From contig JBDRJK010000009.1 of assembly GCA_043814985.1 (NCBI GenBank), positions 1 through 15,598 on the forward strand: a stretch of 15,598 nt of DNA, in the 5' to 3' direction. The position numbers were made by a program, and so were the translations under genes. Under the pieces are notes generated by a model. That model saw only the letters and a program-made list of their open reading frames with translations. It searched no databases and was not told where the DNA came from. Below, one piece after another: positions 111 to 15,598 of this stretch; position 1 is the stretch's first letter; each line of letters starts with the position of its first letter. The stretch is from Candidatus Aenigmatarchaeota archaeon (lineage in GTDB: Archaea; Aenigmatarchaeota; Aenigmatarchaeia; Aenigmatarchaeales; Aenigmatarchaeaceae).

Positions 111-132
111 GGTTATTTTGAGAATACCTCTC

Positions 133-147: not shown

Positions 148-347
148 TTACTAAGCAGTAGCAATAACGCTTTTTCTGAAATCCGTTATTCAGTCACTCG
201 ACAGTGTAAAACCTGAAAACCTCGAATTTGAGGGCTTTAGGCTCTGTACTGCCAGAACTGCCAAGAGGCCAGAAAGACCGACTTTGCATTGGAGGTTTGC
301 CTGCCAAGGGGCGGAATGAGACCGAAAAAAACAAGGAGGTAAGAACC

Positions 348-617: not shown

Positions 618-771
618 CATCCGCAAAGAACTGCAGAAGAAAAACCAGCAGACCCGACAAAAAATCCAGAAACAGAAAGACAACCAGGAAGTCGACGACT
701 TCATGGAAGACATAGGCATCGACAGAGTCGATAAGCCACAAAAAAAGGATGAAAGGAGGTCAAGAAAATGA
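601..771 (+). CDS. Small charged hypothetical protein
   Basis: In frame with ORF 589..771, with GAGG at 591-594 before ATG 601. The stop overlaps the next start (ATGA at 768-771). Confidence 0.55.
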   Translation: MTQQNDIRKELQKKNQQTRQKIQKQKDNQEVDDFMEDIGIDRVDKPQKKDERRSRK

Positions 772-1247
772 AACTTGAAGCATCAGACAAGGTTGCCGTA
801 CCTCAAAAACGGCCATTTATCAAAAAAGGATTCTATCATGCACGACTGGTAGAAATCAAGCCAAAGAAGAACGAGAGCAAATTCGGCAAGAAGATTGTCC
901 TTATCTTTGACATTCTTGATCCGAAATACCAGCAGAACGGAAAGTTTCTGCAGCTCGCAACAGAAGTGTATTCTGAATACAAGCAGGACGATGGAAGCTA
1001 CAGGACAGCAATAACCCCGAACAGCAACATCACCAAAACGTTCCAGGCACTGGGATGGAAATTCTCCAATCAGGGCCTTGACACAAACGATTTCATCGGA
1101 GCAGAAGCAGAAGTTCTGGTTGAAGACTACGAATACGACTGGACAGACCCAGCAACGACCAAGACAGAGAAAACCAGAGCCAGCACCATCAATGACGTCA
1201 ACCCATGGAAAGATGAGGCGGAGGTAACCGAAGAAACCATCCAATAA
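768..1247 (+). CDS. Putative single-stranded DNA-binding protein (DUF669-like phage OB-fold)
   Basis: GGAGGT at 755-760. Pattern 'KGFYHARLVEI...KFGKKIVLIFDI...DTNDFIGAEAEVLV...INDV' plus an acidic tail is typical of phage SSB-like proteins. Located in the replication module. Confidence 0.55.
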   Translation: MKLEASDKVAVPQKRPFIKKGFYHARLVEIKPKKNESKFGKKIVLIFDILDPKYQQNGKFLQLATEVYSEYKQDDGSYRTAITPNSNITKTFQALGWKFSNQGLDTNDFIGAEAEVLVEDYEYDWTDPATTKTEKTRASTINDVNPWKDEAEVTEETIQ

Positions 1248-1264
1248 ACGTCACCACTGTTCAG

Positions 1265-1355
1265 TACGATTATGTCAAAATCGCAACATTACACTGACAG
1301 ACCCCCTATTTTCGGGTTTGAAAAAAGTAACTGATAGGGTTTTGACATAATCGTA
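1265..1355. repeat. Perfect 16-bp inverted repeat (TACGATTATGTCAAAA / TTTTGACATAATCGTA) with 59-nt spacer
   Basis: Arms at 1265-1280 and 1340-1355 are exact reverse complements. An inner CCCTAT (1304-1309) / ATAGGG (1334-1339) pair is also present. Confidence 0.9.
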
Positions 1356-1446
1356 TCGGATAGTAGTAACAAAAAGACGACTGGAAAACAAGCGAGACTG
1401 CTCGAAGTAGCTGCAGCTATCAAAAAAACAAAGGAGGTACAGAAGA

Positions 1447-3504
1447 ATGAACAAAGAAATATTCATGAGTTTCATGAAGTTTGGCACTCTTGGCCTGCCA
1501 AAAGAAATACTCACAGAACTCAATGGAAAATACTTCACTGCAGCAGACTCACTGATCCAGTCAACAAAACCAGAAGATATTCAGAAGAACATAGCAGTAC
1601 TCTCAGAATTAGAGAAGTATCTGAGAAAGATTTCTGAAGAGCATGATGTTGATTTTCCAGATGTTTTTTTCTTTTTGAGCGGATACTACAATTCAGACAT
1701 CGTTTGTGAGAACCTCAAGGAAGACGATAGAGTTCCTGATGCATTCATCAAATCTCTTGAGAGCAAACATACTGAAAACAGCATCATCAAAATATCTCAG
1801 CCATACAATTACGAGCAGATAAAATATATTACCCGTCAGATATTCAATAACCAGAAAGAAAGACACCCTCTTATTTTTCCAATACCTCCTCATGAAAAGA
1901 TTTTGGGAAAAGTAGTTGGAGAGATAGAGCAAAGAAAAATAAAAATTCCACTTGCTTGGTCAAATGAAATCCAGGTCAAAGACGTAAAGAATTATGCAGC
2001 ATATGTTTTTGGCGAGACACTTCCAAAAAGGCCAAAGATAGTCGATGAAGTAAACGGAGAATTCTTCCTCTACAGATTTCTCTCAAAAAGCGGAAAAGAA
2101 TACGCACTGGCAAGCATAGACAAGCTTAATCTCGATGACTACACACTTGACGGGATAAGCATTGAAGTTGAGGACGTAAAGATACTTGGCGATGCATACA
2201 GACTGCTCAATAAATTCACGCTCTTCTTTGTCCATACTGCAGAAAACCACGTCTGCCAATTAAAGAACCATCAGCAATTATTCCAGAAAGCTGATGCTGT
2301 AAAACTCACAGGAATAAAACTTTATGACTATCTTTGCAGCTATAAAAAAGATGGAATAATCCAGATTCTCGAGCATCCAAAATGGTTTCTCAGGCTCGTA
2401 TCAGCATTTCTGTTTCACAAAAAGAAGGGAGACACTGCAGAATACCCTATGCACCTTCTTTGGATTTCCGAGAGAGGGGCTGGCAAAACCAGCTTCATGG
2501 AAGGAGTCCAGCAAAAGAGCGGAGAGACGCAGGGCATCATAGCTGGAAGCAATTCCACTATCAAATATCTCATTCCAAGTTTTAAAGAAACACGAAGACC
2601 AGAGATGGGAGCTCTGGCCAAAGCATCACGTCTCTGCGTCATTGACGAATTCTTCAGAGTCATCAGGATAAATCACTTAGACCATGACGATGAATGCGGG
2701 AAGATGAACGATCTTCTCGAGCATAAGGACAGGCAGGCTGGAAGCGGACATGGCATGATAAGAACCAGCATGACTGCACGAGTAATTGCTGGCACGAACC
2801 CGATTGCAGGAACAAAAGACATCATTAATCTTCTTGAAAGGTTTGACGATTCTTTCCTGAGCAGATTCCTCATTTACTATCAGACTGACGAGCACTTAAA
2901 ACTCATTCAGCAGATGAAGAAAACAGCACAGAAAAGGTACACAAAAGATTGGATTGATGTCAACGACTTTCTCAGCATCCAGGATTATCTTCAGGGATTT
3001 GATGCAAAATATGACCGACAAAGACTCATCGACATCTTTGACAGATTCCTGCTGTTCTTCAATGAGCAGGTAAAAGGATTGTACGAGGCAAGATATCTGC
3101 ATCACCTCGAATGCCTCACTGACGGAATCGTAAAAACGAGATGCCTCATAACAAGAGATGCAGCATTCACGGCAACAGAAGAAGATTATCAGGAAGTAGA
3201 ACAGATATGGGGCACAATACTCAAAGGATGGTTCAAGCAAAGCATCGATGAACTCGTCTGTGATTTGAATGTACCAATAGAAACCCGTCTGAAATTTCTT
3301 CCTGAAGATGCAATGTTCATTCTGCACAAGCTTGCTTCAATCGGATACAAGGCAAGGATAACAGAACTCAAAGACAAATGCAGAATTGAAATGTCTGCTC
3401 CAAAAATAGCATTCCAGATGTCCCTTCTTCATAGAGGGGGATTCATCAAAGACAACAACGGAGAAGCAATCCATTACGCATGGGATGTAGAGGAGAGAAA
3501 ATGA
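1447..3504 (+). CDS. mcm: Divergent MCM-family AAA+ replicative helicase
   Basis: Walker A HLLWISERGAGKTS, GALAKA, Walker B LCVIDEF, sensor-1 IAGTNP and arginine finger FLSRF occur in MCM order. Probable C-terminal winged helix. GGAGGT at 1433-1438. Confidence 0.85.
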   Translation: MNKEIFMSFMKFGTLGLPKEILTELNGKYFTAADSLIQSTKPEDIQKNIAVLSELEKYLRKISEEHDVDFPDVFFFLSGYYNSDIVCENLKEDDRVPDAFIKSLESKHTENSIIKISQPYNYEQIKYITRQIFNNQKERHPLIFPIPPHEKILGKVVGEIEQRKIKIPLAWSNEIQVKDVKNYAAYVFGETLPKRPKIVDEVNGEFFLYRFLSKSGKEYALASIDKLNLDDYTLDGISIEVEDVKILGDAYRLLNKFTLFFVHTAENHVCQLKNHQQLFQKADAVKLTGIKLYDYLCSYKKDGIIQILEHPKWFLRLVSAFLFHKKKGDTAEYPMHLLWISERGAGKTSFMEGVQQKSGETQGIIAGSNSTIKYLIPSFKETRRPEMGALAKASRLCVIDEFFRVIRINHLDHDDECGKMNDLLEHKDRQAGSGHGMIRTSMTARVIAGTNPIAGTKDIINLLERFDDSFLSRFLIYYQTDEHLKLIQQMKKTAQKRYTKDWIDVNDFLSIQDYLQGFDAKYDRQRLIDIFDRFLLFFNEQVKGLYEARYLHHLECLTDGIVKTRCLITRDAAFTATEEDYQEVEQIWGTILKGWFKQSIDELVCDLNVPIETRLKFLPEDAMFILHKLASIGYKARITELKDKCRIEMSAPKIAFQMSLLHRGGFIKDNNGEAIHYAWDVEERK

Positions 3505-4613
3505 GACTCTACTGCACCCAAGAGGAAGAAGACTATTGGATGGGTGAGCCTATCTATGAAGAAAACAAATCCGTCGGATTTCACAGAATGTGGTTTCTTG
3601 ATGTACTCTCAAGAAAGACTGATTTTGATATCAGCCTGCAAAGTCAGGAGGGATATTTCACGAAAAGAATGTCCTGGTCTGATTTGCATCCTGACAATAA
3701 GCTTCGGGCATACATCATTCATAGAACACTGCTATGCAATGAGATAGTGTTTGATCTTGATGCAAAAGATTACGAGCAGAATGTTGAGAATTTCAAGAGC
3801 ATATATCCACGACTCAAGGAACTCGGTTATTTTCCTTATGTGTATTATTCAGGAAATAAAGGCCTGCACATCCACCTATTCCTTTCATTCAAAAGCCTCG
3901 TCAACGATTTGGATATGAAGATACAGAAAAGAATTGTCAAGCATTATGCGAGAGCAGAAACCTTTGAAAAACAATTCACAAAATTCATAACCAACAAAAT
4001 ACAATGGGCTCACCGATACTTCTCCGTTGACAAAGCCATTAATCAGACCAATCATCTTATACGTGCAGAGGGAAGCCTCAACAAAATAGGATTCAAGACA
4101 TTCTTAGGACATACTCCAGAAGAAATTCCTTCAATAGCTCCAGTCTTCAATCTTGAAAACAAGGAATATCCAAAATTTCCATTTCATGAGATTACAGATT
4201 CACTTGAAACCATAAAGTACTCTCACCCAACAAACCTCGTGCCTCTGTGCGAAGAATTTGTGAAAGCAAAGAAGATAGGAATACAGGAGCCAACATACAA
4301 ACCATTAACGGAGTTCTTTGATATAAAGCCAAAAGACAAGTCATGCATAAAGTTTCTTGAGACGGCAGATTTTGCTAATTTACAAGAAGGAAGGAAAAGA
4401 GCACTCTTCATTCTCGCATCGCATTACAAGGATGATCCTCAGCAGATAGTTATCCTGCAGGAATGGAACAACAAAATCCTCGACAATCACCTGACTGATT
4501 TTGAAATACAGAGTTCTGCAAAGAGCACAACAGGAAAAGTGAGCTGCAAGTACACTCACGAGTTTCTCGAATCAATAGGGTGCAGTCAAGTCTGCAAGGG
4601 GTGTTCGCAATGA
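3501..4613 (+). CDS. Archaeo-eukaryotic primase (AEP) with PriL/PriX-like Cys-containing C-terminal domain
   Basis: AEP motifs EIVFDLD, YSGNKGLHIH and LIRAEGS. The C-terminal part reads SCIKFL..EGRKRALFILASH..VSCK..GCSQVCKGC. Start set at ATG 3501 (ATGA overlap with the MCM stop). Confidence 0.85.
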   Translation: MRLYCTQEEEDYWMGEPIYEENKSVGFHRMWFLDVLSRKTDFDISLQSQEGYFTKRMSWSDLHPDNKLRAYIIHRTLLCNEIVFDLDAKDYEQNVENFKSIYPRLKELGYFPYVYYSGNKGLHIHLFLSFKSLVNDLDMKIQKRIVKHYARAETFEKQFTKFITNKIQWAHRYFSVDKAINQTNHLIRAEGSLNKIGFKTFLGHTPEEIPSIAPVFNLENKEYPKFPFHEITDSLETIKYSHPTNLVPLCEEFVKAKKIGIQEPTYKPLTEFFDIKPKDKSCIKFLETADFANLQEGRKRALFILASHYKDDPQQIVILQEWNNKILDNHLTDFEIQSSAKSTTGKVSCKYTHEFLESIGCSQVCKGCSQ

Positions 4614-4807
4614 TTCAGGTGCAGGGCATTACAGATCCGAAGAAGCAGATGAAAACCATTCAGTTCCTAAAAAGTGTCCCGGAGTTCTCTGATATTGACG
4701 GGAGGAAAAGGGGGCCGTTCAAACCAGGAGACGCTCTGAGGATACATATCGACATTGCTAATCTGCTCATACTCAAAGGCAAGGCCAAAGAGTTTGATAT
4801 CGACTGA
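4610..4807 (+). CDS. Stand-alone GINS B-domain-like protein (65 aa)
   Basis: IQFLKSVPEFSDIDGRKRGPFKPGDALRIHIDIANLLILKGKAKE matches the pattern of the archaeal Gins51 C-terminal B-domain / PriS C-terminal domain. ATGA overlap with the primase stop. Confidence 0.75.
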   Translation: MIQVQGITDPKKQMKTIQFLKSVPEFSDIDGRKRGPFKPGDALRIHIDIANLLILKGKAKEFDID

Positions 4808-4816
4808 GGTGAAACC

Positions 4817-4984
4817 ATGAACGAGGCAATACAATTGAGAAACAAACTGATGGGAGAAATCCAGGCATTGAGGCAGGATAATTCATCATGGAAAAGAAAG
4901 ATAGTGGAGAATGAAAAAAGAATTGCAGAGCTTGAACAGATTACAAAATCATTCGAGCATCTGACAAAGGAGGCAGTACAATGA
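4817..4984 (+). CDS. Small coiled-coil hypothetical protein (55 aa)
   Basis: Below the ORF-track cutoff. GAGGTG precedes ATG 4817. Sequence MNEAIQLRNKLMGEIQALRQDNSSWKRKIVENEKRIAELEQITKSFEHLTKEAVQ shows a heptad pattern. Confidence 0.65.
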   Translation: MNEAIQLRNKLMGEIQALRQDNSSWKRKIVENEKRIAELEQITKSFEHLTKEAVQ

Positions 4985-5151
4985 TGCAAAAACTAAAGCG
5001 AAGATACGTCTATGCAGAAACATTTGACGAAATAATGGCTTGGGCAAAAGAGAAAGGAATCAGAGCTCCGAACAGGAAAGATAATTTTCCATTCTTCCTG
5101 CATGAATATCTGAAAGAAAAAGGAGGCTGTCAAGATGTGGAAAGGATATGA
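4981..5151 (+). CDS. Small hypothetical protein (56 aa)
   Basis: Below the ORF-track cutoff. GGAGG upstream and ATGA overlap with the previous stop. Sequence MMQKLKRRYVYAETFDEIMAWAKEKGIRAPNRKDNFPFFLHEYLKEKGGCQDVERI. Fills the gap before the MTase. Confidence 0.6.
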   Translation: MMQKLKRRYVYAETFDEIMAWAKEKGIRAPNRKDNFPFFLHEYLKEKGGCQDVERI

Positions 5152-6082
5152 TTCACTCCCCAGTTATTTTGGCGGAAAGAGAAAGCTTGCACGAAGAATC
5201 CTAAGCCACACAGAAGGAGAAGTATTCATTGATGCGTTTCTTGGAGGAGGAAGCGTCTCTCTATTAGCGAAAGCAAGAGGATACAAAGTAATCTGCAACG
5301 ACATTTCAGAAAGGTCAAAGATAGTAGGCAAAGCAATCATCGAGAACAAAAACTCCAAGCTGACAGATTATGATGTTTATGCATTGTTCAAGGAAACTGA
5401 CAACCATTTCATCAGAGACACTTATCCGAATCTCCTGCTGGAAAAAGATGTGCAGTTCATAGACAACGCTTTTGCCAATGCGAAGACAGACCTGCAGAAA
5501 CTTCTCTTAATCAAGTTCCTCGCTAAATACAAGCCATTTGGCATGCTGTCCAACAAAATACCTAAAGACCTGGAGACATGCAATATCAAAGTCATAAAAC
5601 CGCACATCAAGTACATGTACAAGCCAGTCAAGGCACTGCAGCAAATCAAGGAACACATCAACTATGGAATCTTTGACAACGGAAAAGAAAACGAACACCA
5701 TCAAAAGGATGTCTTTGAATTCTTAGAGAACGTGCAGGGCGACACTGTTTACTTTGACCCTCCTTATGCTGGAAGCCAGAGCTATGAAGAATTTTACAAC
5801 ATCCTGGACAGCATCCTTTTTCAGAAGAAGATTTCGGTTGAGAAAAGCAAGTTCAACACTGGAGATGCTGAGAAATTCATTCATCAGCTTCTTGAGAAAT
5901 CAATGCACATAAAGAAAGTCATCTTCAGTTTTGGAGGTCCTCAGATTGACGGGCAAAGACTTCTCAAGATAGTGCAGGAGCACAGGCCTGCTGAACTCTA
6001 TGAGATACAGCACAAGTGGGCTATCACGGCAAGTGATGAGCAGATGCAGACTGCAACTGAAATATTGGTGGTGACAAAATGA
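5135..6082 (+). CDS. DNA N6-adenine methyltransferase (Dam/D12-like, alpha group)
   Basis: SYFGGKRKL, SAM-binding FIDAFLGGGSV and NDI at the N-terminus; catalytic VYFDPPY near the C-terminus. GGAGG at 5122-5126. Confidence 0.9.
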   Translation: MWKGYDSLPSYFGGKRKLARRILSHTEGEVFIDAFLGGGSVSLLAKARGYKVICNDISERSKIVGKAIIENKNSKLTDYDVYALFKETDNHFIRDTYPNLLLEKDVQFIDNAFANAKTDLQKLLLIKFLAKYKPFGMLSNKIPKDLETCNIKVIKPHIKYMYKPVKALQQIKEHINYGIFDNGKENEHHQKDVFEFLENVQGDTVYFDPPYAGSQSYEEFYNILDSILFQKKISVEKSKFNTGDAEKFIHQLLEKSMHIKKVIFSFGGPQIDGQRLLKIVQEHRPAELYEIQHKWAITASDEQMQTATEILVVTK

Positions 6083-6702
6083 AAACTGAAAGAATATCTG
6101 TAAATCTGATAGATGAAAACGAGTACAACCCAAATGAGATGGATGAGAACCATTACAAAAAGCTTGTCCAGAACATCAAAAGAAAAGGCTTCAGAAAACC
6201 AATCGAAGTCAGAAAGAATGGAGAGCGCTACACGATAGTTGACGGAGCACATAGGTTCAGAGCGTGCAAAGAACTGGGCTACACTGAAGTAGACTGCATA
6301 GTGGATGAGATTGACGTAACAGAAGCGATGGTTGATACCTTAAACGCCAATATTCATGGCAGTCACAATCCCTACAAGGAAGCCATGATGTTCAAGCAGA
6401 TACACGACAGGTACACTCTCCAGGACATTGAGAAACTGACAGCATATGGCCAGACTGAAATCAAAGACAGAATGGACTTGCTTGGCCTTCCCGCCAATGT
6501 CCAGAAGATGATTGAAGAGCTGCAGGAAAAAGAGCGAAAAGAAGCGCCAGTGGTTCTTACGTTCATTGTAAAGGAGACTGAGAGGCAGCTCGTTATGGAT
6601 GCTTTGGGCTTATTTGAAGATGCTTCTGACAAGAATAAGGCACTATTGGCGCTGTGCAAAAGTGCTCTGGAAAAACAGGTGATTTCTGATGGAGCAAAAT
6701 GA
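6079..6702 (+). CDS. ParB/Sulfiredoxin-like N-terminal domain protein
   Basis: NEYNPNEM...LVQNIKRKGFRKPIEVR...YTIVDGAHRFRA, followed by a helix-turn-helix-like segment. ATGA overlap with the MTase. Confidence 0.88.
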   Translation: MKTERISVNLIDENEYNPNEMDENHYKKLVQNIKRKGFRKPIEVRKNGERYTIVDGAHRFRACKELGYTEVDCIVDEIDVTEAMVDTLNANIHGSHNPYKEAMMFKQIHDRYTLQDIEKLTAYGQTEIKDRMDLLGLPANVQKMIEELQEKERKEAPVVLTFIVKETERQLVMDALGLFEDASDKNKALLALCKSALEKQVISDGAK

Positions 6703-7285
6703 AACGCGGTCTCAAACGCCGTCTCAGGATTCAAGACTGGACAGATTCGGAGATAAGATACATGTCTTCACAGATGAAGAACGATTAAAGGGCAATAAAT
6801 ATATCTCTCAAAAGAGAAAAGTAGCTAATTCCCTGAACTCCTTCAAGCACGGGTATTATTCAAACAGGGTTCCTCACTGCCACACCTGTATCTTTAAAAG
6901 CAAATGCACGGCTTATGATCCTAAGGACCCGAAAGCTGCATGCAAAGTAATTGATATCCCTAACTACCTGCATCTGATGTCGGCTCTCACTTTTACTTCT
7001 GAGCAAGAGTTTGATGACTTCATTAACAAACAAATGCAGAGAGCATTCATGAAGAATCTGACGGCAAATGACCAGAAACAGATTCTTGATTTTGTGACAA
7101 TCATTCTCAAAGTAAAGGACACAAAATTCAGAACTCCGCAGGAGCAGACAATCAATCTGCAGATAAATAATTTCACATCTGAGTTTCAAGTCTTGAAGGA
7201 TGTGACAATCAAAGTTCTGAATAAGCATCCTGAAGTAATGCAGGAATGGAGGGCCGCAATTGAATCTGCCAAACAGCCCAATTGA
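6689..7285 (+). CDS. Putative terminase small subunit
   Basis: Directly upstream of and overlapping TerL. Contains an NSFKHGYYS motif resembling the 'NAxKHG' of TerS-like proteins, a CxxC-x5-C-x10-C cluster, and a helical C-terminus with 'TINLQINN'. Confidence 0.55.
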   Translation: MEQNETRSQTPSQDSRLDRFGDKIHVFTDEERLKGNKYISQKRKVANSLNSFKHGYYSNRVPHCHTCIFKSKCTAYDPKDPKAACKVIDIPNYLHLMSALTFTSEQEFDDFINKQMQRAFMKNLTANDQKQILDFVTIILKVKDTKFRTPQEQTINLQINNFTSEFQVLKDVTIKVLNKHPEVMQEWRAAIESAKQPN

Positions 7286-8732
7286 GAAAGCGCTCTTTGA
7301 CAGCTTCAAAGAGCCGAATTATTCCAACTTCATAGGATTCGTAAAGAGATATCTCGCTCCCTTTATGGAACAGTCCTTTGTAGAGGAAGATTACTACAAG
7401 GAATGGTTTGACCTCGAGCAACTTAATCAGTACAATGCCATTGAAGCTCCAAGAGGACACAGTAAAAGCGAGATGTTCACCGTATGGATTACAATCTACT
7501 ATGCAATCTACAACATCCATCACGAGCAAATAATATCCAGCGTCAGCGGAGACCAGACCAATGAATTATTTGACAGAGTAAAATTCTTCTTCTATGTAAG
7601 CAATTATCTCAATGAACAATATAAGCCAGAAGGAGCAGACAAAAACGTCAGCCTGAGTTCATGGAACTCAAAGAAAATAGTTCTCAAGAATGATACAATT
7701 ATTCATGCACGAAGCATTGCAGGAAAGTGGAGAGGGCTCCACGTTGACAGAATTGTCTGCGATGATATCATCACAGAAGACAGCACTTTAAGCGACAGGC
7801 AGACAATCAACAAATTTTATTCCGCAGTGTTCAACTGCTCAACAGCGAAGAAAGGAAAGATTACAGTCATAGGAACTCCCCTAAGATTTTCTGATATACT
7901 TTTTGATTTGAAATCAAATAAGCAGTTTAATTTCAAAGCGTATCCTGCAATTCTTGATTATGAAAAGAAGATTGTTCTCTCACCTAAAAGAAGATCATTC
8001 GAAGAATTGCTGAGGATAAAAGATACTATCGGCTCATTAAGATTTCAGTGCGAGTACATGCTCAACCCCATCGATGACCAGAGTTCAATCTTCAAAAGAG
8101 AATGGCTGAACAGGGCAAGAAATGAAAGCATTGACCTAATCAGGAACAGACAGGACTTGCAGAAATACGGATTCAATCCGACGCTACTCACCTGCGGAGC
8201 TGACTTCGCATTCTCAGAGAGAAAGAATGCCAATTATTCAGTATTTCTCACACTTGCACGATTAAATGACGGAAGGCTTCTGCTCTGCAATTACTTCAGA
8301 GCTCAGGGACTTACAGGCCAGCAGCAGGTAGACAAACTCAGGGAACTGCATGCCATTTACGATTATGATGTCATGGCTTTGGAAGAAAACAGCATCATGG
8401 CAATAAGCAAAGACCTGCACGGGCTTGGCCTGCCAATAAAGCTTCTCAGGACAGGCTCACGAGATACTGAAAACACCATCTCCAAGACAAACGCTATTCT
8501 GAGAATGACGACATGGTTTGAGAACAACCAGGTCATAATTCCTTACGGGAGCGATGAAGCAAAGGAAAGATACGAAATTCTTGAGCAGGAATTCAGAAGC
8601 TTCGCACTTGAAGACGGGAAAATAATCGAGATTGGAGTCCACCCGGACATACCTATTGCTTTCGTGTATGCAGGAGAATCTGCAAAGAAAGCAACTCAGG
8701 CATCAGGATTCGTGACAAGCATAGTACGATAA
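7260..8732 (+). CDS. terL: Terminase large subunit
   Basis: Walker A APRGHSKS, Walker B IVCDD and coupling motif IGTP. RNase H-like nuclease motifs GADFA, LEEN and HPD. TTG start with GGAGG at 7248-7252; the exact start is uncertain. Confidence 0.92.
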   Translation: MNLPNSPIEKALFDSFKEPNYSNFIGFVKRYLAPFMEQSFVEEDYYKEWFDLEQLNQYNAIEAPRGHSKSEMFTVWITIYYAIYNIHHEQIISSVSGDQTNELFDRVKFFFYVSNYLNEQYKPEGADKNVSLSSWNSKKIVLKNDTIIHARSIAGKWRGLHVDRIVCDDIITEDSTLSDRQTINKFYSAVFNCSTAKKGKITVIGTPLRFSDILFDLKSNKQFNFKAYPAILDYEKKIVLSPKRRSFEELLRIKDTIGSLRFQCEYMLNPIDDQSSIFKREWLNRARNESIDLIRNRQDLQKYGFNPTLLTCGADFAFSERKNANYSVFLTLARLNDGRLLLCNYFRAQGLTGQQQVDKLRELHAIYDYDVMALEENSIMAISKDLHGLGLPIKLLRTGSRDTENTISKTNAILRMTTWFENNQVIIPYGSDEAKERYEILEQEFRSFALEDGKIIEIGVHPDIPIAFVYAGESAKKATQASGFVTSIVR

Positions 8733-8753
8733 AAAAAGGAGGTTCAAATAAAA

Positions 8754-9113
8754 ATGTTCAATCCAGAAAACCTTAGCAGAAGAGACAAAAAAATAATGAA
8801 TGCACTGCTCTACTTTTATCCAAGAAAGAGAAGTGCATTCCACATATACGAGTACATCTCAAAGTTCAACCAGAAAAGCGGAGTCAAGAATCCAAAAGCA
8901 CTCGGCCACATACTCACAAGGTTCCCAGTCAAAAGCTCGCTCACAGTATTCCAGTCATACGTTGATAAAAGCATTTCAGGAAGCAGATTCATACGATTAT
9001 ACGTTCTTGATGATGGCTTTGTAAAAAAATATTATAAAGAAAAAAACGGACTTCTGATATTGGACAGAAATAAGTCTAAGGAATCTGGTAAACATGGGGC
9101 AGGAAGAAAATAA
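8754..9113 (+). CDS. Basic hypothetical protein, possibly winged-helix DNA-binding
   Basis: GGAGGT at 8738-8743. The three-helix plus beta-hairpin pattern is a by-eye impression only. Confidence 0.55.
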   Translation: MFNPENLSRRDKKIMNALLYFYPRKRSAFHIYEYISKFNQKSGVKNPKALGHILTRFPVKSSLTVFQSYVDKSISGSRFIRLYVLDDGFVKKYYKEKNGLLILDRNKSKESGKHGAGRK

Positions 9114-11127
9114 GGCATTAATGGTGCTCTCACAAGTAAATGAGGGCATAAGGCAGACAGCCACGACAGTAGATTACTCTACTGTAAACTATACAAAACT
9201 TGAAAGCATCTACAAAACAGACCAGCTCATCTTCCAGGCAGTAAACATCATCAGCACATTCGCCATAAGCAAGGGATACCAATACGTCGTCTCAGAGAAC
9301 ACTGAAGAAGAAATGGCTATGAGAGATAAAATAGCTTCACTTGATACTATCGTCGGGCTTCCAAAGCTATTGACTGATATTGTACGGCATCTGCACATTT
9401 ACGGGAATGCATATCTTGAAATCGTTTACTCCAGAACTGACAATAAGAAAGTTGTCGGTCTCGCACTGATTGATCCTAAGACCATCACATTCAAAAAGAA
9501 AGGGACTGGAGAAATAGACCTTGATGAAAGCGGAAACATAAAAGGGTACATCCAGACTGTAAACGCCAAAAAGATAGAACTTAATCCGAATCAGATAATT
9601 CATTTCAGAATCAACACCATTGCAGACTCTCTTACAGGAACAGGAATCATCGAGCCACTGGTCAAGATTATAGAAGCCAAAAGAAACATTGAGGTAGGTC
9701 TTGCAGAAGCAGTGTATCGTCATGGATTTCCGCAATTCCATGTGAAGCTTGGTGACAAAGAGCATCAGCCTACAGGAGAGCAGGTAACAGAAGAATCTGA
9801 AAAGTACAAAAGAATCAATTCAAAATCAGAATTCGTCACCCCCTATTATTACGAGATTAAGGTTCTTGAAGCTCCTGCATTAAAGGGCGGAGAAAGTTAC
9901 CTCAAGTATTTCATTGACCAGATTGTAGCAGGAACGGGAGTTCCTCAGACCATTCTTCTTGGAAGCGGAGAATTCAGCAACAGGTCATCATCAATGTCAC
10001 AGCAGGAAAACTTCTTTTTATACATCGCAGGAATACAAAGCCTTGTCGCAGAAACACTGCAAAAGGAACTATTCACAAAGATTGTCCTCCTCGATGAATG
10101 TCCTGTATATATGTTTTTCAATTCATTGCAGACAAAATCAGACCTGGAACTCGCCCAGGAAAGAGAGATTTATCTGCGTTATAATGTTTTAACTCCTGAT
10201 GAGGTCAGGCAAGAAATGGGCTTGGAACCTCTTTCTACACCCCCAACGGATGAGCAATCCCAATCTGATGCATCAGGAGATTTTTCTTTCCTCAACGATA
10301 AGGAACTCATGCTCGAGCCAGATTCAGGATTTCAGTACATCCACGAAGAGCTTGATTTCGGAGGAGTGCTCCAGCAATTATCTGAACCTATCCGCTCACG
10401 ATTCATCAAAGACCAGCAGATACTCACTTACAGAATCAACAGGATAATGGACAAAGCAAGGGCAAAAATACTCAACGAAATAGACATAAACACAAAAGAC
10501 GAAACCCCGATTCTTGCACGAGAAAACATTCTCATTGATTCTGAAATGCTTGCCCCTGAGCGAGACGCTCTTGTCGCAGCAATCTTTCTCGATTCAAAAA
10601 AGAAATTCAAGCAGGGAATAAAACTTGGAGAGAACTTCATCAAAAAGAATTATCCCCAGGTTGCAGGAATAAAAGTCAAGAGCACAATCAATGAACAGGC
10701 CATCAGAGCTCTTGACCTGAGAGCATCGCAATTGGCCAATACTGTAAGCGAAGACCTTCTTGCAGCAACCCAGATTTCCATACGTGACGGAATAATGGCT
10801 CGCAAAGGAGCAAAGCAGCTTAAAGAGGACATCGAAGCAATCTTTGAGAAATATGGAGGCTCTTCTGGAAGATTCAATAAAGTCGGTACAAGAGCAGAAC
10901 TCATAGCAAGAACAGAACTGCAGAGGGCATTTATCGAGGGAAATATTCAAAGCTTCAAAGAACTTGGAGTGATGAAAGTCCAGATGTCAATCAATCCTGA
11001 TGCATGCGAGCAATGCATAGAAACATCATCCCAAAACCAGGATGTGTCCATACATCTTGCAGAGGGAATAATCCCAGTTCATCCACGATGCAGATGCGGA
11101 TGGGTTGTATCATTAATTGAGAAATAA
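9094..11127 (+). CDS. Portal protein fused to a MuF (SPP1 gp7-like) head morphogenesis domain
   Basis: The N-terminal ~380 aa carry portal motifs IYGNAYLEI, IIHFR..GTGIIEPL, GVPQTILLG and LTPDEVRQEMGLEPL. The C-terminus carries MuF motifs RAELIARTE, DACEQC and PVHPRCRC. Single uninterrupted ORF. Confidence 0.88.
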   Translation: MGQEENKALMVLSQVNEGIRQTATTVDYSTVNYTKLESIYKTDQLIFQAVNIISTFAISKGYQYVVSENTEEEMAMRDKIASLDTIVGLPKLLTDIVRHLHIYGNAYLEIVYSRTDNKKVVGLALIDPKTITFKKKGTGEIDLDESGNIKGYIQTVNAKKIELNPNQIIHFRINTIADSLTGTGIIEPLVKIIEAKRNIEVGLAEAVYRHGFPQFHVKLGDKEHQPTGEQVTEESEKYKRINSKSEFVTPYYYEIKVLEAPALKGGESYLKYFIDQIVAGTGVPQTILLGSGEFSNRSSSMSQQENFFLYIAGIQSLVAETLQKELFTKIVLLDECPVYMFFNSLQTKSDLELAQEREIYLRYNVLTPDEVRQEMGLEPLSTPPTDEQSQSDASGDFSFLNDKELMLEPDSGFQYIHEELDFGGVLQQLSEPIRSRFIKDQQILTYRINRIMDKARAKILNEIDINTKDETPILARENILIDSEMLAPERDALVAAIFLDSKKKFKQGIKLGENFIKKNYPQVAGIKVKSTINEQAIRALDLRASQLANTVSEDLLAATQISIRDGIMARKGAKQLKEDIEAIFEKYGGSSGRFNKVGTRAELIARTELQRAFIEGNIQSFKELGVMKVQMSINPDACEQCIETSSQNQDVSIHLAEGIIPVHPRCRCGWVVSLIEK

Positions 11128-11136
11128 AAAGAAAAA
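11121..11136 (-). terminator. Oligo-T archaeal terminator candidate for the TR RNA
   Basis: The minus strand reads TTTTTCTTTTTATTTC immediately 3' of the closing stem of the predicted TR RNA. Confidence 0.45.
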
Positions 11137-11137
11137 G

Positions 11138-11395
11138 TGTCCCAGCCATAAGCTTGACTATTCCGACGAAACGCCCATTATTGTTGATGTTGTTGTTGCC
11201 ATCGAGGCCATTATTATTGTTGTTGAGATACGCCAGGCGCCCCTAGAGTAGCCATTTCACTTTCCTGAAAGCCACCACCACTTCAGACATTAGCTGTCGT
11301 GGTTGTATTTTATAGCAGCAAGCTGCCGTAGTGAAATGACGTGTAGTTCCAAGCTACTCCATAACCTCATGGAAGTCCATGAAGCAACTGGGACA
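11138..11395 (-). ncRNA. Predicted structured DGR template RNA containing TR
   Basis: No ORF. Complementary pairs: 11138-11145/11388-11395 (8 bp), 11246-11252/11353-11359 (7 bp), 11253-11261/11330-11338 (9 bp). Local hairpins at 11277-11303, 11315-11326 and 11367-11382. G-U extensions form only on the minus strand. Confidence 0.7.
11158..11244 (-). repeat. DGR template repeat (TR)
   Basis: The minus strand conceptually reads GRLAYLNNNNNGLDGNNNINNNGRFVGI (11 AAY codons). Ungapped 87-bp match to 11584-11670. Confidence 0.96.
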
Positions 11396-11415
11396 GAAAG
11401 CAAAATAAAAGAAGG

Positions 11416-11433
11416 AATATAAAAAAATATCGG
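11416..11433 (-). promoter_or_regulatory. Candidate BRE-TATA promoter for the TR RNA (may also terminate the target gene)
   Basis: The minus strand reads CCGATATTTTTTTATATT, with the TATA-like part ~25 nt upstream of the predicted RNA 5' stem at 11395. Confidence 0.45.
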
Positions 11434-11437
11434 TAAT

Positions 11438-12346
11438 TTATCGCTTGTACAGCTGAGATACGGCTTTTAGCATGCCTTCTCTGTTCAGGTCTGGGTTATT
11501 GATAACTGCCAGTGTCTGCTCGAGAGTTGGCTGCACAATGCTTTGAGGAGCTGATTTTTCGCGCGCAACTGCGCCTCCGGCGCCTACCCCGACGAAACGC
11601 CCAACATCGTAGATGCTGTTGTAGCCACCGAGGCCATAATCATTGTAGTCGAGATACGCCAGGCGCCCCTTAGCTTGAGCGTCAAAACCAACATCATTGA
11701 TTCTGTGATAGCTGCCGTTATTACTCCAGCCTTCTCCGCCCTCCTCCTTTTTGCCAAAGAGCATTTTAGCTAATGCTTCTCTGTTTTCAGGAGAGCCAGT
11801 AATCATCAAGACCCTGTCGTCCTGCATAAAAGTATCGTAATCCAGCTGGCCACTGCCGTTAATCTTTGGGCTGTCCTTGTCTAATCGAGCAAAGATAGTG
11901 TAGGGAGTTCCTGGTGCAGGCACATTGCCTTTCCTTGCATCTTCAAGATGTACTCTGGCAACAGTCTGGCCATTATAGCTGCCTTTTCCAACAGCAACCC
12001 ATTCATCATCAGAAATGGGCATGAACGCATAATTTCCAGCCTGCTTGAATAGCTTTTCCAAGCCTTTTGCAGTAGCCAAAGAGCCTGCTGAATGCCATGC
12101 CTCGTAAGAACGATCTCCGTCTCTCTGTCCATGATATTCACCAGTGATTGTGTCAATCCAAGTAGGTCTGATTGCTTCACGAACTTCAGGATGAGTTGTC
12201 ATGGACTGAATGACCATAGGCATGTCTGCTACGGTTAATCCATGTTCTTGAGAAAGTTTTTCAGCTTGATTTCTTGCCTTAACGTATCCAGTCTGGTCAG
12301 TAACTGCTGCCAGTACAGGTGATTTTATTTGCACGATTTGTGACAT
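11438..12346 (-). CDS. DGR variable (target) protein, probable C-type-lectin fold
   Basis: Contains the VR in frame (GRLAYLDYNDYGLGGYNSIYDVGRFVGV). Has its own SD (GGAGGT, 12356-12361) and promoter. The GRFVG ending resembles CLec-fold DGR targets; the fold itself is inferred. Confidence 0.9.
   Translation of the reverse strand: MSQIVQIKSPVLAAVTDQTGYVKARNQAEKLSQEHGLTVADMPMVIQSMTTHPEVREAIRPTWIDTITGEYHGQRDGDRSYEAWHSAGSLATAKGLEKLFKQAGNYAFMPISDDEWVAVGKGSYNGQTVARVHLEDARKGNVPAPGTPYTIFARLDKDSPKINGSGQLDYDTFMQDDRVLMITGSPENREALAKMLFGKKEEGGEGWSNNGSYHRINDVGFDAQAKGRLAYLDYNDYGLGGYNSIYDVGRFVGVGAGGAVAREKSAPQSIVQPTLEQTLAVINNPDLNREGMLKAVSQLYKR
11571..11583 (-). other. GC-rich hairpin GCGCC-GGA-GGCGC directly 3' of VR (homing/IMH-associated stem-loop)
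   Basis: 5-bp stem with a GGA (GRA-type) loop that begins where TR/VR similarity ends. Absent after TR. Confidence 0.75.
11584..11670 (-). repeat. DGR variable repeat (VR)
   Basis: 13 of 87 positions differ from TR, all at TR adenines (8 A>G, 5 A>T). None of the 58 non-adenine positions differs. Confidence 0.96.
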
Positions 12347-12400
12347 TTTGAGCGAACCTCCATTAAATTGACTATCTTTTTATAGGATAAAATCAGGTAG

Positions 12401-12415
12401 TATTTAAAGGTTTCG
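12401..12415 (-). promoter_or_regulatory. Archaeal BRE-TATA promoter of the DGR target gene (CGAAACC-TTTAAATA)
   Basis: Consensus-like BRE and TATA box ~55 nt upstream of ATG 12346, with SD GGAGGT in the leader. Confidence 0.75.
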
Positions 12416-12465
12416 ATTTTGTAATCACTACGAAGTAGTGTTGCTTATAAAAACAGCAGATGCCG

Positions 12466-12663
12466 TCAATCTTCCTTTAGGGGGAACTTCTCAATGAGTA
12501 TGTACTCTTTTTTATTCATACGCACTGCACTGACCTGTACCTTGCTCCCGCTCTTCAAGCCGATTGCCTTGGCCTCTCTGGTAACCAAAACCCCTATCCC
12601 ATTCCCATATGTATTCAGCTGCTTAACAGACCGTTCAATGATTTCCTTTTTTGAATCATTCAT
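12466..12663 (-). CDS. AbrB/SpoVT/MazE-type swapped-hairpin DNA-binding protein
   Basis: 65 aa with 'YGNGIGVLVTREAKAIGLKSGSKVQV...ILIEK', the usual AbrB-fold pattern. Confidence 0.7.
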   Translation of the reverse strand: MNDSKKEIIERSVKQLNTYGNGIGVLVTREAKAIGLKSGSKVQVSAVRMNKKEYILIEKFPLKED

Positions 12664-12673
12664 TCATGTATCT

Positions 12674-12766
12674 TACAGTATATAACTAATAAACACCGTA
12701 TTATACAGTATATTACGTGACCAGAATCAATGTTAATAAATCGGATGTAATATACCTTATATTACG
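12674..12766. promoter_or_regulatory. Divergent promoter region with operator-like repeats
   Basis: TACAGTATAT at 12674-12683 and 12704-12713. TATATTACG at 12709-12717 and 12758-12766. Inverted repeat GTAATATA-cct-TATATTAC at 12747-12765. TATA-like TTAATAAA at 12733-12740, 27 nt before the RT ATG. Confidence 0.55.
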
Positions 12767-14485
12767 ATGCAGGATACAGGCATAATTGAGAATGTTTACG
12801 AAGAACTCTGTTCATACGAAAATCTTGAAACCGCTTTCAACAGGGCAAGAAGAGGCAAAACACTCAAGGACTATGTGATTGAATTTGAAGCAAAACTAAA
12901 AGAGAATTTGCTACAGCTGAGGACAGAACTTCTCCTGCAAACATACCAGCCACAACCCCTCAAAACATTCATTCTTCGAGATCCAAAAACAAGGAAGATA
13001 AGCAAGTCAGCATTCAGAGACAGAGTTGTGCATCATGCAATATGCAATATCATTGAGCCTGTTTTTGACAAGAGGTTCATTTACGACTCCTTCGCCAACA
13101 GACTAAGAAAAGGAACCCTAAACGCAGTCAAAAGGTTTGACGAATTCAAAAGAAAAGTGTCGCAGAACAACACTATCAGATGCTATGTTCTCAAAGCAGA
13201 TATCAAAAGTTATTTTGACTCAGTAAACCATCAAATCCTCTTACAAATACTCGGCAAAAGAATCAAGGACGAAAGATTACTGTGGCTCATAAAGACAATT
13301 CTCGACAACCATAAAGGAGAAGACAGCAACAAAGGCATGCCCTTGGGAAATCTCACATCGCAATTCTTTGCCAATGTCTATCTCAATGAATTTGATCAGT
13401 TTGTCAAGCACAAGCTGAGAATCAAATATTACATACGATATGTTGATGATTTTGCAATTCTGCATCAATCTCGCAAAGTACTTGAAGACTACAAAGAAAA
13501 AATTAATACGTTTCTCAAAGACAAGCTGGATCTCAAACTTCATCCAGACAAATCCCAAGTTCTCAAATTGGAGAAAGGCATCGGCTTTCTCGGATTTCGA
13601 GTATTCTACCATCATAAAATCCTAGTAAAAAAGAACATGAGAAAGTTTGAGAAAAAGATGGAACAGATGAAGCATGAGTATGGGGACAAGAAGCTTGAAA
13701 GAGAAAAGGTCATCGAGAAATTCGAAGGCTGGCTTGCATACGCATCTCACGCAAATACTTACAAATACCGAAAAAGAATGACGAGCAAATTCAACCATTC
13801 ATTTCCAACTCAGACAGATACCACAATTACCTCGGTTAAAAAACATGAAAACTTCAATCATAAAGTTGACGAAAGCAAGACGGCATTCAGCCAGCAAAAG
13901 ACACTTCAGCTCGTCAGAAGAGGCATGTCTGTCAAACAAATTGCGGAAGCAAGAGGTATCAAAGAAGGAACCGTCTGGGATCATGTGGCCTCTTCAATTG
14001 AGCATTATCAATTACAGCTGAAGTCAATTCTCCCAAATTATAAAATACGGAAAATTCTTTCCAATATTAAATCACCTGATGATAAAATCAAGGACATAAA
14101 AGAAAGAGTCAATGATATCTCAATATCCTACAACGAGATCAACTGCGTTCTTGCCAACGTCAAAGGAAAACACAAAAAGAAAAGCATGATGTATTTTATC
14201 GACTGGTACAAACGAACAAACTGTTTCAGAAAGTGCTATTTTAATAAAAATCAAAGGCAAGAATGCAGAGTCAAATTTCAGCAGCTCGCTGCCAAGGGTG
14301 CAGAAATGAATTTTACAAAGAAAGAATTTCTCGATTTCTTCAACAATCATGTCAGCATATGCGTTCTTCCAGACAAGGATAAGAGAAAATTTGTTTCATG
14401 GAAAGAGTTCAAACAGAGTCTCCGCAAAAAGAAACCCAATCCAGACAATAAACCATCCGACAATAAGAAACCTACATCTCCCTAA
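12767..14485 (+). CDS. DGR reverse transcriptase with C-terminal HTH extension
   Basis: Motifs FRDRVVHHA, YVLKADIKSYFDSVNH, the DGR-type GMPLGNLTSQ (13334-13363), YIRYVDDF (YVDD 13439-13450) and FLGF. Followed by ~220 extra aa including TLQLVRRGMSVKQIAEARGIKEGTVWDHV. Confidence 0.95.
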   Translation: MQDTGIIENVYEELCSYENLETAFNRARRGKTLKDYVIEFEAKLKENLLQLRTELLLQTYQPQPLKTFILRDPKTRKISKSAFRDRVVHHAICNIIEPVFDKRFIYDSFANRLRKGTLNAVKRFDEFKRKVSQNNTIRCYVLKADIKSYFDSVNHQILLQILGKRIKDERLLWLIKTILDNHKGEDSNKGMPLGNLTSQFFANVYLNEFDQFVKHKLRIKYYIRYVDDFAILHQSRKVLEDYKEKINTFLKDKLDLKLHPDKSQVLKLEKGIGFLGFRVFYHHKILVKKNMRKFEKKMEQMKHEYGDKKLEREKVIEKFEGWLAYASHANTYKYRKRMTSKFNHSFPTQTDTTITSVKKHENFNHKVDESKTAFSQQKTLQLVRRGMSVKQIAEARGIKEGTVWDHVASSIEHYQLQLKSILPNYKIRKILSNIKSPDDKIKDIKERVNDISISYNEINCVLANVKGKHKKKSMMYFIDWYKRTNCFRKCYFNKNQRQECRVKFQQLAAKGAEMNFTKKEFLDFFNNHVSICVLPDKDKRKFVSWKEFKQSLRKKKPNPDNKPSDNKKPTSP

Positions 14486-14519
14486 AATAATATTAAGAAA
14501 AAAACAGATTTCTCATGTT

Positions 14520-15119
14520 ATGTCTGAACTACTGCTAAAAGAGATACACGGATTCGTCAGCACTGCTAAATCCAAGAAGGAAGAATCATCTAAGGAAATG
14601 ATAGACGCATTTCTTTCCAACAACGCAGTAGCAGTCCAGATTAATTCCTTATCACGCTCACTTGAATATGTTCAGCTCCATGGCGTAAAAATCCAGCAGG
14701 TTCTAAGGGAAGGCACTTCCCTGAGAATTACAGGAGTGGCCATAAGCGAGGGCATGTGGAATGGCATATTCTATCCTGCAGAAGAGCTGGAGAAAGCATA
14801 CAAAGGACTCGAGGGAAAACCTCTGAGGATTGACCATTCTTCAAGTATAAGGGATATTGTCGGGAAAGTCATCAGGTCAATATGGAATGCTGCTCAGAAA
14901 AGAGTAGAATTTGAAGCAATAGTCAATGATGATGAAATTGCCCAGAAGCTCCTGGACAAGCTGATTGATTCTGTGAGTGTTGGTGTGTTAATAGACAATG
15001 TTGAAGAAAACGGCGAGCATGTAGCCCGCAATATCGAATTCAAGGAATTGAGCCTTGTTGATGATCCTGCATGCAAAGATGCGAAAATCAATCCAATAGG
15101 AAACGGAGGCACTGATTAA
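14520..15119 (+). CDS. Prohead (capsid maturation) protease, HK97/herpes-like fold
   Basis: ITGVAISEG.WNGIFYPAEEL...GKPLRIDH (His), IVGKV, VSVG (Ser) and ELSLVDDPACKDAKI. Start set at ATG 14520 to avoid overlap with the RT. Confidence 0.85.
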   Translation: MSELLLKEIHGFVSTAKSKKEESSKEMIDAFLSNNAVAVQINSLSRSLEYVQLHGVKIQQVLREGTSLRITGVAISEGMWNGIFYPAEELEKAYKGLEGKPLRIDHSSSIRDIVGKVIRSIWNAAQKRVEFEAIVNDDEIAQKLLDKLIDSVSVGVLIDNVEENGEHVARNIEFKELSLVDDPACKDAKINPIGNGGTD

Positions 15120-15120
15120 A

Positions 15121-15477
15121 ATGACTGAAATAAAAGAAATTGAGCAAGCCAAAGCCCTCCTGAAAAAGGCATCAGAAGAGATTACTGCCAAAACTCAGGA
15201 GATAGAAAAGCTTGCACAGGAAATGTCCGCAAAGGATAAGCTAATCTCTGACTTGACTGCAAAACATGAGAAACTGCTCAAAGACTTTGAAGCAGTATCA
15301 AAAGAACTCAAGCATATCAAGCAGGAAGCAAGAGATGTCGTTCTCAAGGAAGCTATTGATGCTGAAGAAAAGTTTGGCATTCTTGAATCCTCCAAAGAAC
15401 AGAGGCTTGCCGAGCTAAGACAGCTTGACGAGACAGGCGGATTTGACCTGTACGCAAAGCAGACCAAGAAAACCTGA
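15121..15477 (+). CDS. Coiled-coil protein, probable capsid scaffolding protein (3' end uncertain)
   Basis: K/E/L-rich heptad pattern and position directly after the prohead protease. The -1 frame remains open past the stop to the window end. Confidence 0.6.
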   Translation: MTEIKEIEQAKALLKKASEEITAKTQEIEKLAQEMSAKDKLISDLTAKHEKLLKDFEAVSKELKHIKQEARDVVLKEAIDAEEKFGILESSKEQRLAELRQLDETGGFDLYAKQTKKT

Positions 15478-15598
15478 CAGGATACAGGAAAAACCTACCA
15501 AAACTAAAAACTGACTACGAATACAACGACTTATCTACAGTCACTAAAGGGATAGAATGGATAATAATAGCAGGAGAACTTGCAGCAGCATTCTTTGG

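Follow-up and report, generated by a model that had tools for sequence, protein, structure and literature searches.

We analysed a 15,598-nt stretch of DNA (positions 1-15598, one whole contig, C9, of an 808 kb archaeal bin; hereafter the window) and identified in it a diversity-generating retroelement (DGR) lying between a portal gene and a putative prohead protease gene. The element is a well-preserved new example of a described DGR type. With a probability of roughly 85%, we read the region as an intact DGR of the nanoarchaeal (DUSEL4/AvpA) type, carried by a lineage of tailed viruses or proviruses whose hosts are DPANN archaea of the Woesearchaeota type. The cassette is ordered as portal (+), template repeat (TR, -), target gene (-), small open reading frame (ORF, -), reverse transcriptase (RT) fused to an HTH_40 domain (RT-HTH_40, +) and protease (+). 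Transcription is divergent, the RT being encoded on the plus strand and the TR, the variable repeat (VR) and the target gene on the minus strand.

Repeat pair, reverse transcriptase and target protein

A repeat finder detected positions 11158-11244 and 11584-11670 as one ungapped 87-nt repeat pair with 85% identity. All 13 mismatches were located at T of the plus strand, which is A of the minus strand in the first copy. Thus, 13 of its 29 adenines were changed in the second copy, compared to none of the 58 other positions (P = 6.6e-8 for 13/13 mismatches falling on 29 of 87 positions by chance). Read in the frame of the target ORF, the first copy contains 11 AAY codons, 9 of which were changed, and the changes were distributed as 9 at codon position 1, 3 at position 2 and 1 at position 3. 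The second copy occupies codons 227-254 of 302, in the 3′ part of the target. Since the mismatches are adenine-only and the second copy lies inside ORF codons, the first copy is the TR and the second is the VR.

The RT ORF, which starts 1097 nt from the VR end, carries GMPLGNLTSQ and YVDD. The DGR signature [I/V/L]GxxxSQ stands in place of the QGxxxSP of group II and retroviral RTs (PMC7826257). LGNLTSQ of the window RT matches this DGR motif, YVDD matches YxDD, and the residue aligned to Arg 74 of bRT is also Arg. Two Pfam domains, RVT_1 (aa 74-279) and HTH_40 (aa 375-462), were identified in the protein, and its PHROGs match was phrog_1423 'Reverse transcriptase' (E 3.5e-116). Among solved structures, the best match was 8ub7 (E 7.7e-43), a 328-aa protein named only 'Reverse transcriptase' in the structure table and which we take to be the Bordetella phage RT, while the best group II intron RT reached E 9.1e-28.

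It could be argued that the RT belongs to a group II intron or a retron and that the repeat pair arose by chance or during assembly. Group II RTs were indeed the top-scoring NCBIfam family (TIGR04416, 172.8 bits); this ranking says little, however, because the scan returned no DGR-specific model. The score is under the cut-off of 300, the retron model NF038233 obtained 58.2 bits against a cut-off of 235, and none of the NCBIfam group II, retron, Drt and Abi models reached its cut-off on the window RT. We also built a tree of 40 RTs, comprising those of the window and of a syntenic relative (genome G724, described below), 31 DPANN RTs, 4 known or annotated DGR RTs and 3 plasmid group II RTs; the last served as the only outgroup. 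The 3 group II RTs separated with 100/100 support, and the window RT paired with the G724 RT (100/100) and next with the DPANN RTs of two loci, L030 and L032, where TR/VR pairs were verified. Given these scores and the tree, the P value of the mismatch pattern and the recurrence of an equivalent TR/VR pair in G724, we rejected this explanation, to which we assign next to no probability. By these sequence comparisons, the window RT belongs to the DGR clade and is separate from the RTs of group II introns.

The family of the RT-HTH_40 fusion comprises 58 clusters, in each of which both domains or the HTH_40 part are present, and its named clusters are Woesearchaeota, Nanoarchaeota or 'archaeon' records. 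Cys 486, 490 and 500 in the C-terminal region were invariant in 53 sequences, and the model of residues 350-572 was all-helical (predicted local distance difference test, pLDDT, 85). In the literature that we searched, a limited collection, no paper linking HTH_40 with DGRs was found.

The target protein showed no Pfam, PHROG or NCBIfam match. In a protein collection clustered at 90%, 97 homologues of it were found, clustering at 50% identity gave 132 clusters, and the names given to the 97 homologues are only Woesearchaeota, Nanoarchaeota, Nanoarchaeia or 'archaeon'. When 47 proteins were aligned, conservation was seen in the scaffold and hypervariability in the VR stretch. A structural model based on 116 sequences had a mean pLDDT of 94.5, with residues 258-267, coded by the hairpin region described below, predicted to be disordered. 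The only Foldseek match in the PDB at E <= 0.001 was 5ioo_A, AvpA (E 2.3e-10, TM 0.77 over the target chain), from the entry entitled 'Accommodation of massive sequence variation in Nanoarchaeota by the C-type lectin fold'. The target-family profile also matched the sequence of 5ioo_A (E 1.6e-13), including the strand GRFVGV. As modelled, the target is an AvpA homologue with a C-type lectin fold, a soluble protein of pI 5.9 with no hydrophobic segment, whose predicted binding face is coded by the VR. Up to 15 codons of this ligand-binding face would be rewritable, and the 11 AAY codons alone would give about 10^13 variants.

Cis elements and template RNA

The VR ends in GTCGGGGTAG, resembling an IMH (initiation of mutagenic homing) element, whereas the TR ends in GTCGGAATAG, the cores being GGGGT and GGAAT, respectively. 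The hairpin GCGCC-GGA-GGCGC, with a GRA trinucleotide loop, follows the VR and is absent after the TR. Its DNA fold has -5.9 kcal/mol, and its stem showed one compensatory pair change in G724, with the GGA loop retained.

With these elements in hand, the original prediction of a DGR from the sequence alone is borne out by the TR/VR pattern, the RT type, the target and the cis elements. The ungapped 87-bp alignment and its counts of 13/29 adenines and 0/58 other positions were reproduced by the repeat finder and a script, the 11 AAY codons behind the predicted repertoire of about 10^13 were found in the target frame, and the RT phylogeny that had been suggested as a check gave a DGR-clade placement, with group II RTs split off at 100/100. 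The adenine bias was confirmed as well, although the emphasis on the strand had to be corrected: the adenines are those of the minus strand, and the RT is divergent on the plus strand.

The 193 nt between the target stop codon and the TR were more conserved than the target gene itself. In this region, on the minus strand (11393-11243), the Rfam RNA RT-16 (RF03019) was detected with 80.1 bits against a gathering score of 50, covering the full model (1-158 of 158), and the match ends where the TR starts. When 10 related loci were searched, RT-16 was found directly 5′ of the TR in 9/9 relatives with a TR or a TR remnant, and it was missing from L012, the only one of the 10 without a TR. A segment located 5-15 nt past the TR end is able to pair with the first nucleotides of RT-16, and the duplex so formed, which would enclose both RT-16 and the TR, beats >=98% of shuffled tails in 7/8 loci. 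Four sequence pairs of this duplex were observed: GUCCCAG/CUGGGAC, GUCUUGGCA/UGCCAAGAC, UCUCGGUC/GACCGAGA and GUCCCUG/CAGGGA. Perhaps the alternative pairing of 11388-11395, either with 11138-11145 or within RT-16, could act as a conformational switch. Within RT-16, 1/55 predicted pairs was doubly changed among 5 close relatives, a test that is uninformative because the 5 sequences are too alike.

A U-run at 11122-11136, past the TR tail and overlapping the portal gene end on the opposite strand, is a putative terminator of the template RNA. The T-rich, TATA-like block at 11416-11432 may serve as promoter for the template RNA, as terminator for the target gene, or in both roles. Regarding the divergent arrangement, TR and RT may occupy different strands in DGRs (PMC5758913). 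Two relatives with RTs 50-53% identical had the conventional order of VR, TR and RT on a single strand.

The small ORF encodes a basic protein of 65 aa (7.3 kDa, pI 9.7) that is conserved with the cassette, with homologues beside the targets in L007, L036, L046 and G724; it is possibly an accessory factor or a regulator. An AbrB-like identity was an impression from sequence only and was set aside, with no match in Pfam. The region at 12664-12766, between the small ORF and the RT, is presumed from its sequence to be a shared promoter/operator region. The copies of a 20-nt AT-rich repeat within it are located at 12668-12687, 12698-12717 and 12747-12766. All features are listed in Table 1.

Table 1. 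Features of the DGR cassette and neighbouring genes in the window
Feature	Position	Strand	Basis or remark
Terminase large subunit (TerL)	7260..8732	+	Pfam, PHROGs
Portal-MuF fusion, neighbour upstream of the cassette	9094..11127	+	Pfam, PHROGs
Enclosing duplex, 3′ strand CUGGGACA	11138..11145	-	12 nt past TR end; predicted
TR, 87 nt, 29 adenines, 11 AAY codons, 3′ end ...GTCGGAATAG (IMH*-like)	11158..11244	-	
Rfam RT-16 RNA (RF03019), structured 5′ domain of the putative template RNA	11243..11393	-	Covariance model
Enclosing duplex, 5′ strand UGUCCCAG	11388..11395	-	Predicted; partner strand covaries in relatives
T-rich TATA-like block CGATATTTTTTTATATT, directly past target stop codon	11416..11432	-	5/5 aligned relatives
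Target gene, 302 aa, AvpA-family C-type-lectin-fold protein	11438..12346	-	ORF, model, Foldseek, profile
GC hairpin GCGCC-GGA-GGCGC	11571..11583	-	Directly 3′ of VR, within target ORF
VR, target codons 227-254, 3′ end ...GTCGGGGTAG (IMH-like)	11584..11670	-	
Small basic ORF, 65 aa	12466..12663	-	Between RT and target
Divergent intergenic region	12664..12766	.	Three 20-nt AT-rich repeats and one 23-nt inverted repeat
RT-HTH_40, 572 aa	12767..14485	+	ORF, Pfam, PHROGs, tree
Putative prohead protease, neighbour downstream of the cassette	14517..15119	+	Weak matches only
Scaffold-like coiled-coil gene	15121-15477		Directly past protease

Viral setting, host and activity

Annotation of the window with Pfam, PHROGs and NCBIfam identified, among others, a primase-polymerase-like gene, a DNA methyltransferase, ParB, TerL, the portal-MuF fusion and the scaffold-like coiled-coil gene, and no recognisable cellular gene was found with Pfam and PHROGs. 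The matches of TerL and the portal were clear, while that of the protease was weak. The portal is fused to a MuF-like head-morphogenesis domain (aa ~460-675), and this fusion is kept in portal homologues 62-98% identical, some on contigs of up to 665 kb, which suggests that these homologues belong to integrated proviruses. A 685-aa ORF (1447-3504) before the primase-polymerase-like gene showed no family match; it is 56% identical to its counterpart in contig C1 of G724 (G724:C1), and a weakly related sequence occurs close to an orphan target in L050.

Among 401 genomes sampled from the class to which a Woesearchaeota-named genome belongs, one, G724, has a portal 69% identical to that of the window. 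On its 27.6 kb contig G724:C1, homologues of 18/18 window proteins tested were detected in the same order, with 55-91% identity. The cassette is at the same site, with the portal, TR, target, small ORF and RT-HTH_40 followed by the protease. Downstream, G724:C1 encodes a cement-like protein and then the HK97 capsid (PF05065, E 1.5e-16), followed by a neck/tail-completion gene (phrog_5, E 1.4e-13), the one well-supported head-tail connector, other tail matches being weak. A stretch of ~1 kb with three small unassigned ORFs lies between RT and protease in G724:C1 (16260-17204, L109) and is absent from the window. Searching IMG/VR revealed no relative of the target and one distant portal (24% identical), and no close TerL was found in the phage collection (<=27.7% identical). 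From the synteny with G724:C1, the cassette appears to be conserved within a lineage of tailed viruses or proviruses, placed between the portal and protease genes. The setting in an archaeal tailed virus, which had been proposed from the window, is supported by TerL, portal-MuF, the weak protease match and the scaffold-like gene, to which G724:C1 adds the HK97 capsid and neck genes.

The nearest relatives of the DGR parts come from contigs with Woesearchaeota or Nanoarchaeota names, where archaeal housekeeping genes surround them. Long cellular contigs carry close homologues of the target and of the RT-HTH_40 fusion, and orphan targets sit among housekeeping genes, so the cassette might be cellular rather than viral, joined to the virus by an assembly chimera or placed beside a chromosomal provirus. 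However, it lies within the head module, between portal and protease, in two diverged and independently assembled contigs. At a third locus (genome record L006, metagenome record L035), the target stands beside a portal fragment 90% identical to that of the window. In addition, the tetranucleotide correlation of the window with the rest of the bin is the lowest of the bin (0.88), and the window contains no recognisable cellular gene. We therefore consider a cellular cassette very improbable.

The bin itself is archaeal, with ribosomal protein L31e and an archaeal small-subunit rRNA. On its contig C1 (15164-15250), ARAGORN called a tRNA with the anticodon CTA (labelled Pyl), and two odd tRNA calls with irregular anticodon loops were obtained on contigs C15 and C21. 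Is the organism of this bin, a DPANN lineage, also the host? The contig was binned with that genome, its G+C of 41% is close to the 36-41% of the bin, and DGR-type RTs were detected in 57/371 genomes of its class, the bin itself counted. On the other hand, the target family was found in 0/370 other genomes of the class, the RT and the portal in none of 3 other genomes of the genus, and portals in the class are <=33% identical to that of the window, against 69% and a whole syntenic virus in the class of the Woesearchaeota-named genome. Similarly, 13 of the 14 genome loci with a target bear the names Woesearchaeota, Nanoarchaeia or Nanoarchaeota, and the remaining one bears the name Acidobacteriota. 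As the distribution of target, RT and portal points away from the class of the bin, the contig was probably mis-binned and the host is probably a Woesearchaeota-type DPANN archaeon; the organism of the bin is an improbable host.

Since G724 carries the same cassette, the two lineages can be compared. Its VR differs from its TR at 15/28 adenines and at 0/59 other positions. Between the TRs of the window and G724, 12 non-adenine sites differ, and at 12/12 of these the base in each VR is that of the TR from the same element. Because of this lineage-specific tracking, TR-to-VR information flow appears to have continued in both lineages since their split. By contrast, two chromosomal copies with a TR and no RT within 6 kb have decayed, with non-adenine mismatches at 17/59 positions in L044 and 28/61 in L034. 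We also examined variants in Logan contigs from four groundwater runs (of 20 runs found), which mix related strains and in which depth and absence of cover are not usable. Among the variants listed, 7 were in the VR, all at TR-adenine sites, and none in the TR.

Alternatively, the cassette might be intact in sequence and no longer active, frozen too recently for drift to appear, and most target relatives are RT-less fossils. Moreover, the polymorphism seen comes from assembled contigs. Nevertheless, two lineages that have diverged to 81% identity in the RT domain and 67% in the portal both show 0 non-adenine mismatches, their VRs track 12/12 lineage-specific TR changes, no ORF is interrupted, and RT-16 is preserved together with the hairpin and the IMH, whereas RT-less copies do show drift. 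Thus, a frozen element seems unlikely to us, and the DGR is apparently recently, and perhaps currently, active, as supported by comparison and not by reads. Of the activity proposed in the original prediction, the recent part is strengthened by two clean, co-evolving lineages.

Orphan copies and proposed mechanism

Before G724, 34 related target loci were fetched, 14 from genomes (L005-L018) and 20 from metagenomes (L034-L053), the two sets partly overlapping. RT fragments remain beside the target in L008/L037, L013/L041, L014/L042 and L046, and a TR remains in L034 and L044. RT-less AvpA-like genes are scattered at different sites in Woesearchaeota chromosomes; the four orphan loci that we examined had differing housekeeping neighbours, e.g. 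SRP54, ribosomal proteins, proteasome, Cdc6 and DnaK. Target-only 'partial DGRs' have been described, with no decision as to whether these represent fossils or remote targets (Paul et al. 2015, PMC4372165). Remote action is most strongly suggested by L012, whose VR equals the window TR at 58/58 non-adenine sites, with the 210 nt upstream 81% identical and no RT or TR seen in its genome. However, the 116 nt beyond the L012 VR are also about 95% identical to the window, which fits recombination of the 3′ part of the gene equally well. The case is therefore not decisive, and we do not count homing in trans into L012 as shown.

We propose that a minus-strand RNA of ~270 nt would start near 11416-11432 and end at the U-run at 11122-11136, and that this template RNA would consist of RT-16, the TR and a short 3′ tail, with both ends pairing. 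The RT would bind it through its RT domain and the fused HTH_40/Cys-containing C-terminal region, and the latter, perhaps together with the small basic ORF product, may substitute for Avd. The TR would then be copied into cDNA with misincorporation opposite adenines. Finally, the cDNA would replace the VR, with the 3′ boundary set by the IMH and the hairpin, and up to 15 binding-face codons would be rewritten.

Several observations weigh against our reading of the region or against parts of this scheme. The window stops before any capsid or tail gene, and the word 'tailed' rests on the relative G724:C1 for that reason. A full RT was present beside the target in 0/34 of the loci fetched before G724, so most copies in nature are apparently not intact. 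The variants came from assembled contigs of mixed related strains only, with 256 variants beyond those listed. In the template RNA, whose start and end we infer, the 5′ nucleotides of RT-16 are also used by the first helix of the Rfam model; as both use the same nucleotides, this helix and the enclosing duplex exclude each other, and one of the two may be wrong. Regarding accessory factors, the Avd family PF05635 gave no six-frame match at E <= 1 in the whole bin and matched no window ORF, the 65-aa small ORF matches no family, and the model of the RT C-terminal region had no fold match at E <= 0.001, the best being a weak one to a RecQ helicase C-terminal domain (3iuo, E 0.22). The proposed Avd substitutes are thus conjecture. 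It should be kept in mind that accessory genes were absent in 29% of surveyed DGRs (PMC5758913), and Avd, present in most but not all DGRs, is not defining for the family.

A bolder and still doubtful combination, which we put forward as tentative, is that the RT-HTH_40 protein with its RT-16-TR RNA forms a self-contained kit that acts on the AvpA-like gene of the virus and also in trans on orphan targets of the host, that the chromosomal copies are leftovers of virus visits, and that the template RNA represents a second architecture of DGR RNAs. If action in trans were true, infection or lysogeny would rewrite the binding site of a host protein. That the copies would be leftovers is suggested because viral RT and portal fragments still adjoin some of them. 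The second architecture, if true, would have a protein-binding domain 5′ of the TR and a terminal duplex enclosing both, and would be free of Avd.

What is new here is a complete and clean virus-borne copy, the evidence for TR-to-VR transfer from two lineages, the covariation for the duplex enclosing RT-16 and the TR, and the likely mis-binning. The window thus provides a clean reference copy of a DPANN-type DGR in a viral setting, with every part placed, whereas most database copies are fragmentary. It also indicates tailed viruses as carriers of AvpA-type DGRs, for which the unusual composition of the RT genes had led to a suspicion of horizontal acquisition (Paul et al. 2015, PMC4372165). 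Being compact and apparently Avd-free, the system could be rebuilt in vitro to probe how the RT primes and stops with a structured RNA upstream of the template.

Comparison with known systems

RT-16 is one of the motifs RT-1 to RT-19, of which only RT-10 was assigned to a DGR, a role of other RT motifs in further DGRs being offered as speculation (Weinberg et al. 2017, PMC5737381). In the window, the motif accompanies the TR and not the RT gene. The literature searched for RT-16 or RF03019 returned only Rfam-type listings and unrelated uses of the term.

As in the window, TR-to-VR transfer is adenine-specific in the DGR of Bordetella phage BPP-1 (mtd-avd-TR-brt), the RT carries the signature motif, and a GC hairpin is present past the IMH. 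In BPP-1, a structured RNA is located 3′ of the TR, between TR and RT gene, and needs Avd (Handa et al. preprint, 10.1101/2023.10.23.563531). In contrast, RT-16 is 5′ of the TR in the window, where a 3′ tail of only ~20 nt precedes the U-run, the TR is separated by 1.5 kb from the RT and lies on the other strand, and Avd was not found.

ANMV-1 (KP703175), a putative virus of ANME archaea, likewise has a complete DGR in an archaeal tailed-virus genome, with an RT 35.8% identical to that of the window and in the same large clade of the tree. It differs in having a Mtd-like target by the tail-fibre genes and an Avd gene (PMC4372165), whereas the window has an AvpA-like target between portal and protease, on the opposite strand, with no Avd found; the TerL proteins are only 21.8% identical. 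We found no report of a DGR in a Woesearchaeota virus in a limited, partly accessible literature collection. Nevertheless, DPANN DGRs of this type and one archaeal virus DGR were published in 2015 (PMC4372165), so the rarity argument, according to which DGRs are little documented in archaeal viruses, is weaker than first stated.

The closest parallel is provided by the DUSEL4 DGRs and AvpA. The nanoarchaeal DGRs of DUSEL4 were described with an IMH TGGGGT against an IMH* TGGAAT, a GRA-loop hairpin that lies within the target gene, and small basic ORFs located between the RT and the target (Paul et al. 2015, PMC4372165). In AvpA, disordered residues are coded by the hairpin, and the IMH codes for RFxGV (Handa et al. 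2016, PMC5006420). The differences are that DUSEL4 is on a cellular contig while the window has the cassette in a tailed-virus head module, and that the base before the IMH core is T there and C here; the accessible text of the DUSEL4 papers mentions neither an RT-HTH_40 fusion nor RT-16 before the TR. On the other hand, the two share a homologous target by sequence and fold (PDB 5IOO) with its RFxGV strand coded by the IMH, the GGGGT and GGAAT cores, a GRA-loop hairpin that codes for a disordered stretch within the target ORF, a small basic ORF between RT and target, chromosomal target-only 'partial DGRs', and a repertoire of about 10^13 variants from 10-11 AAY codons.

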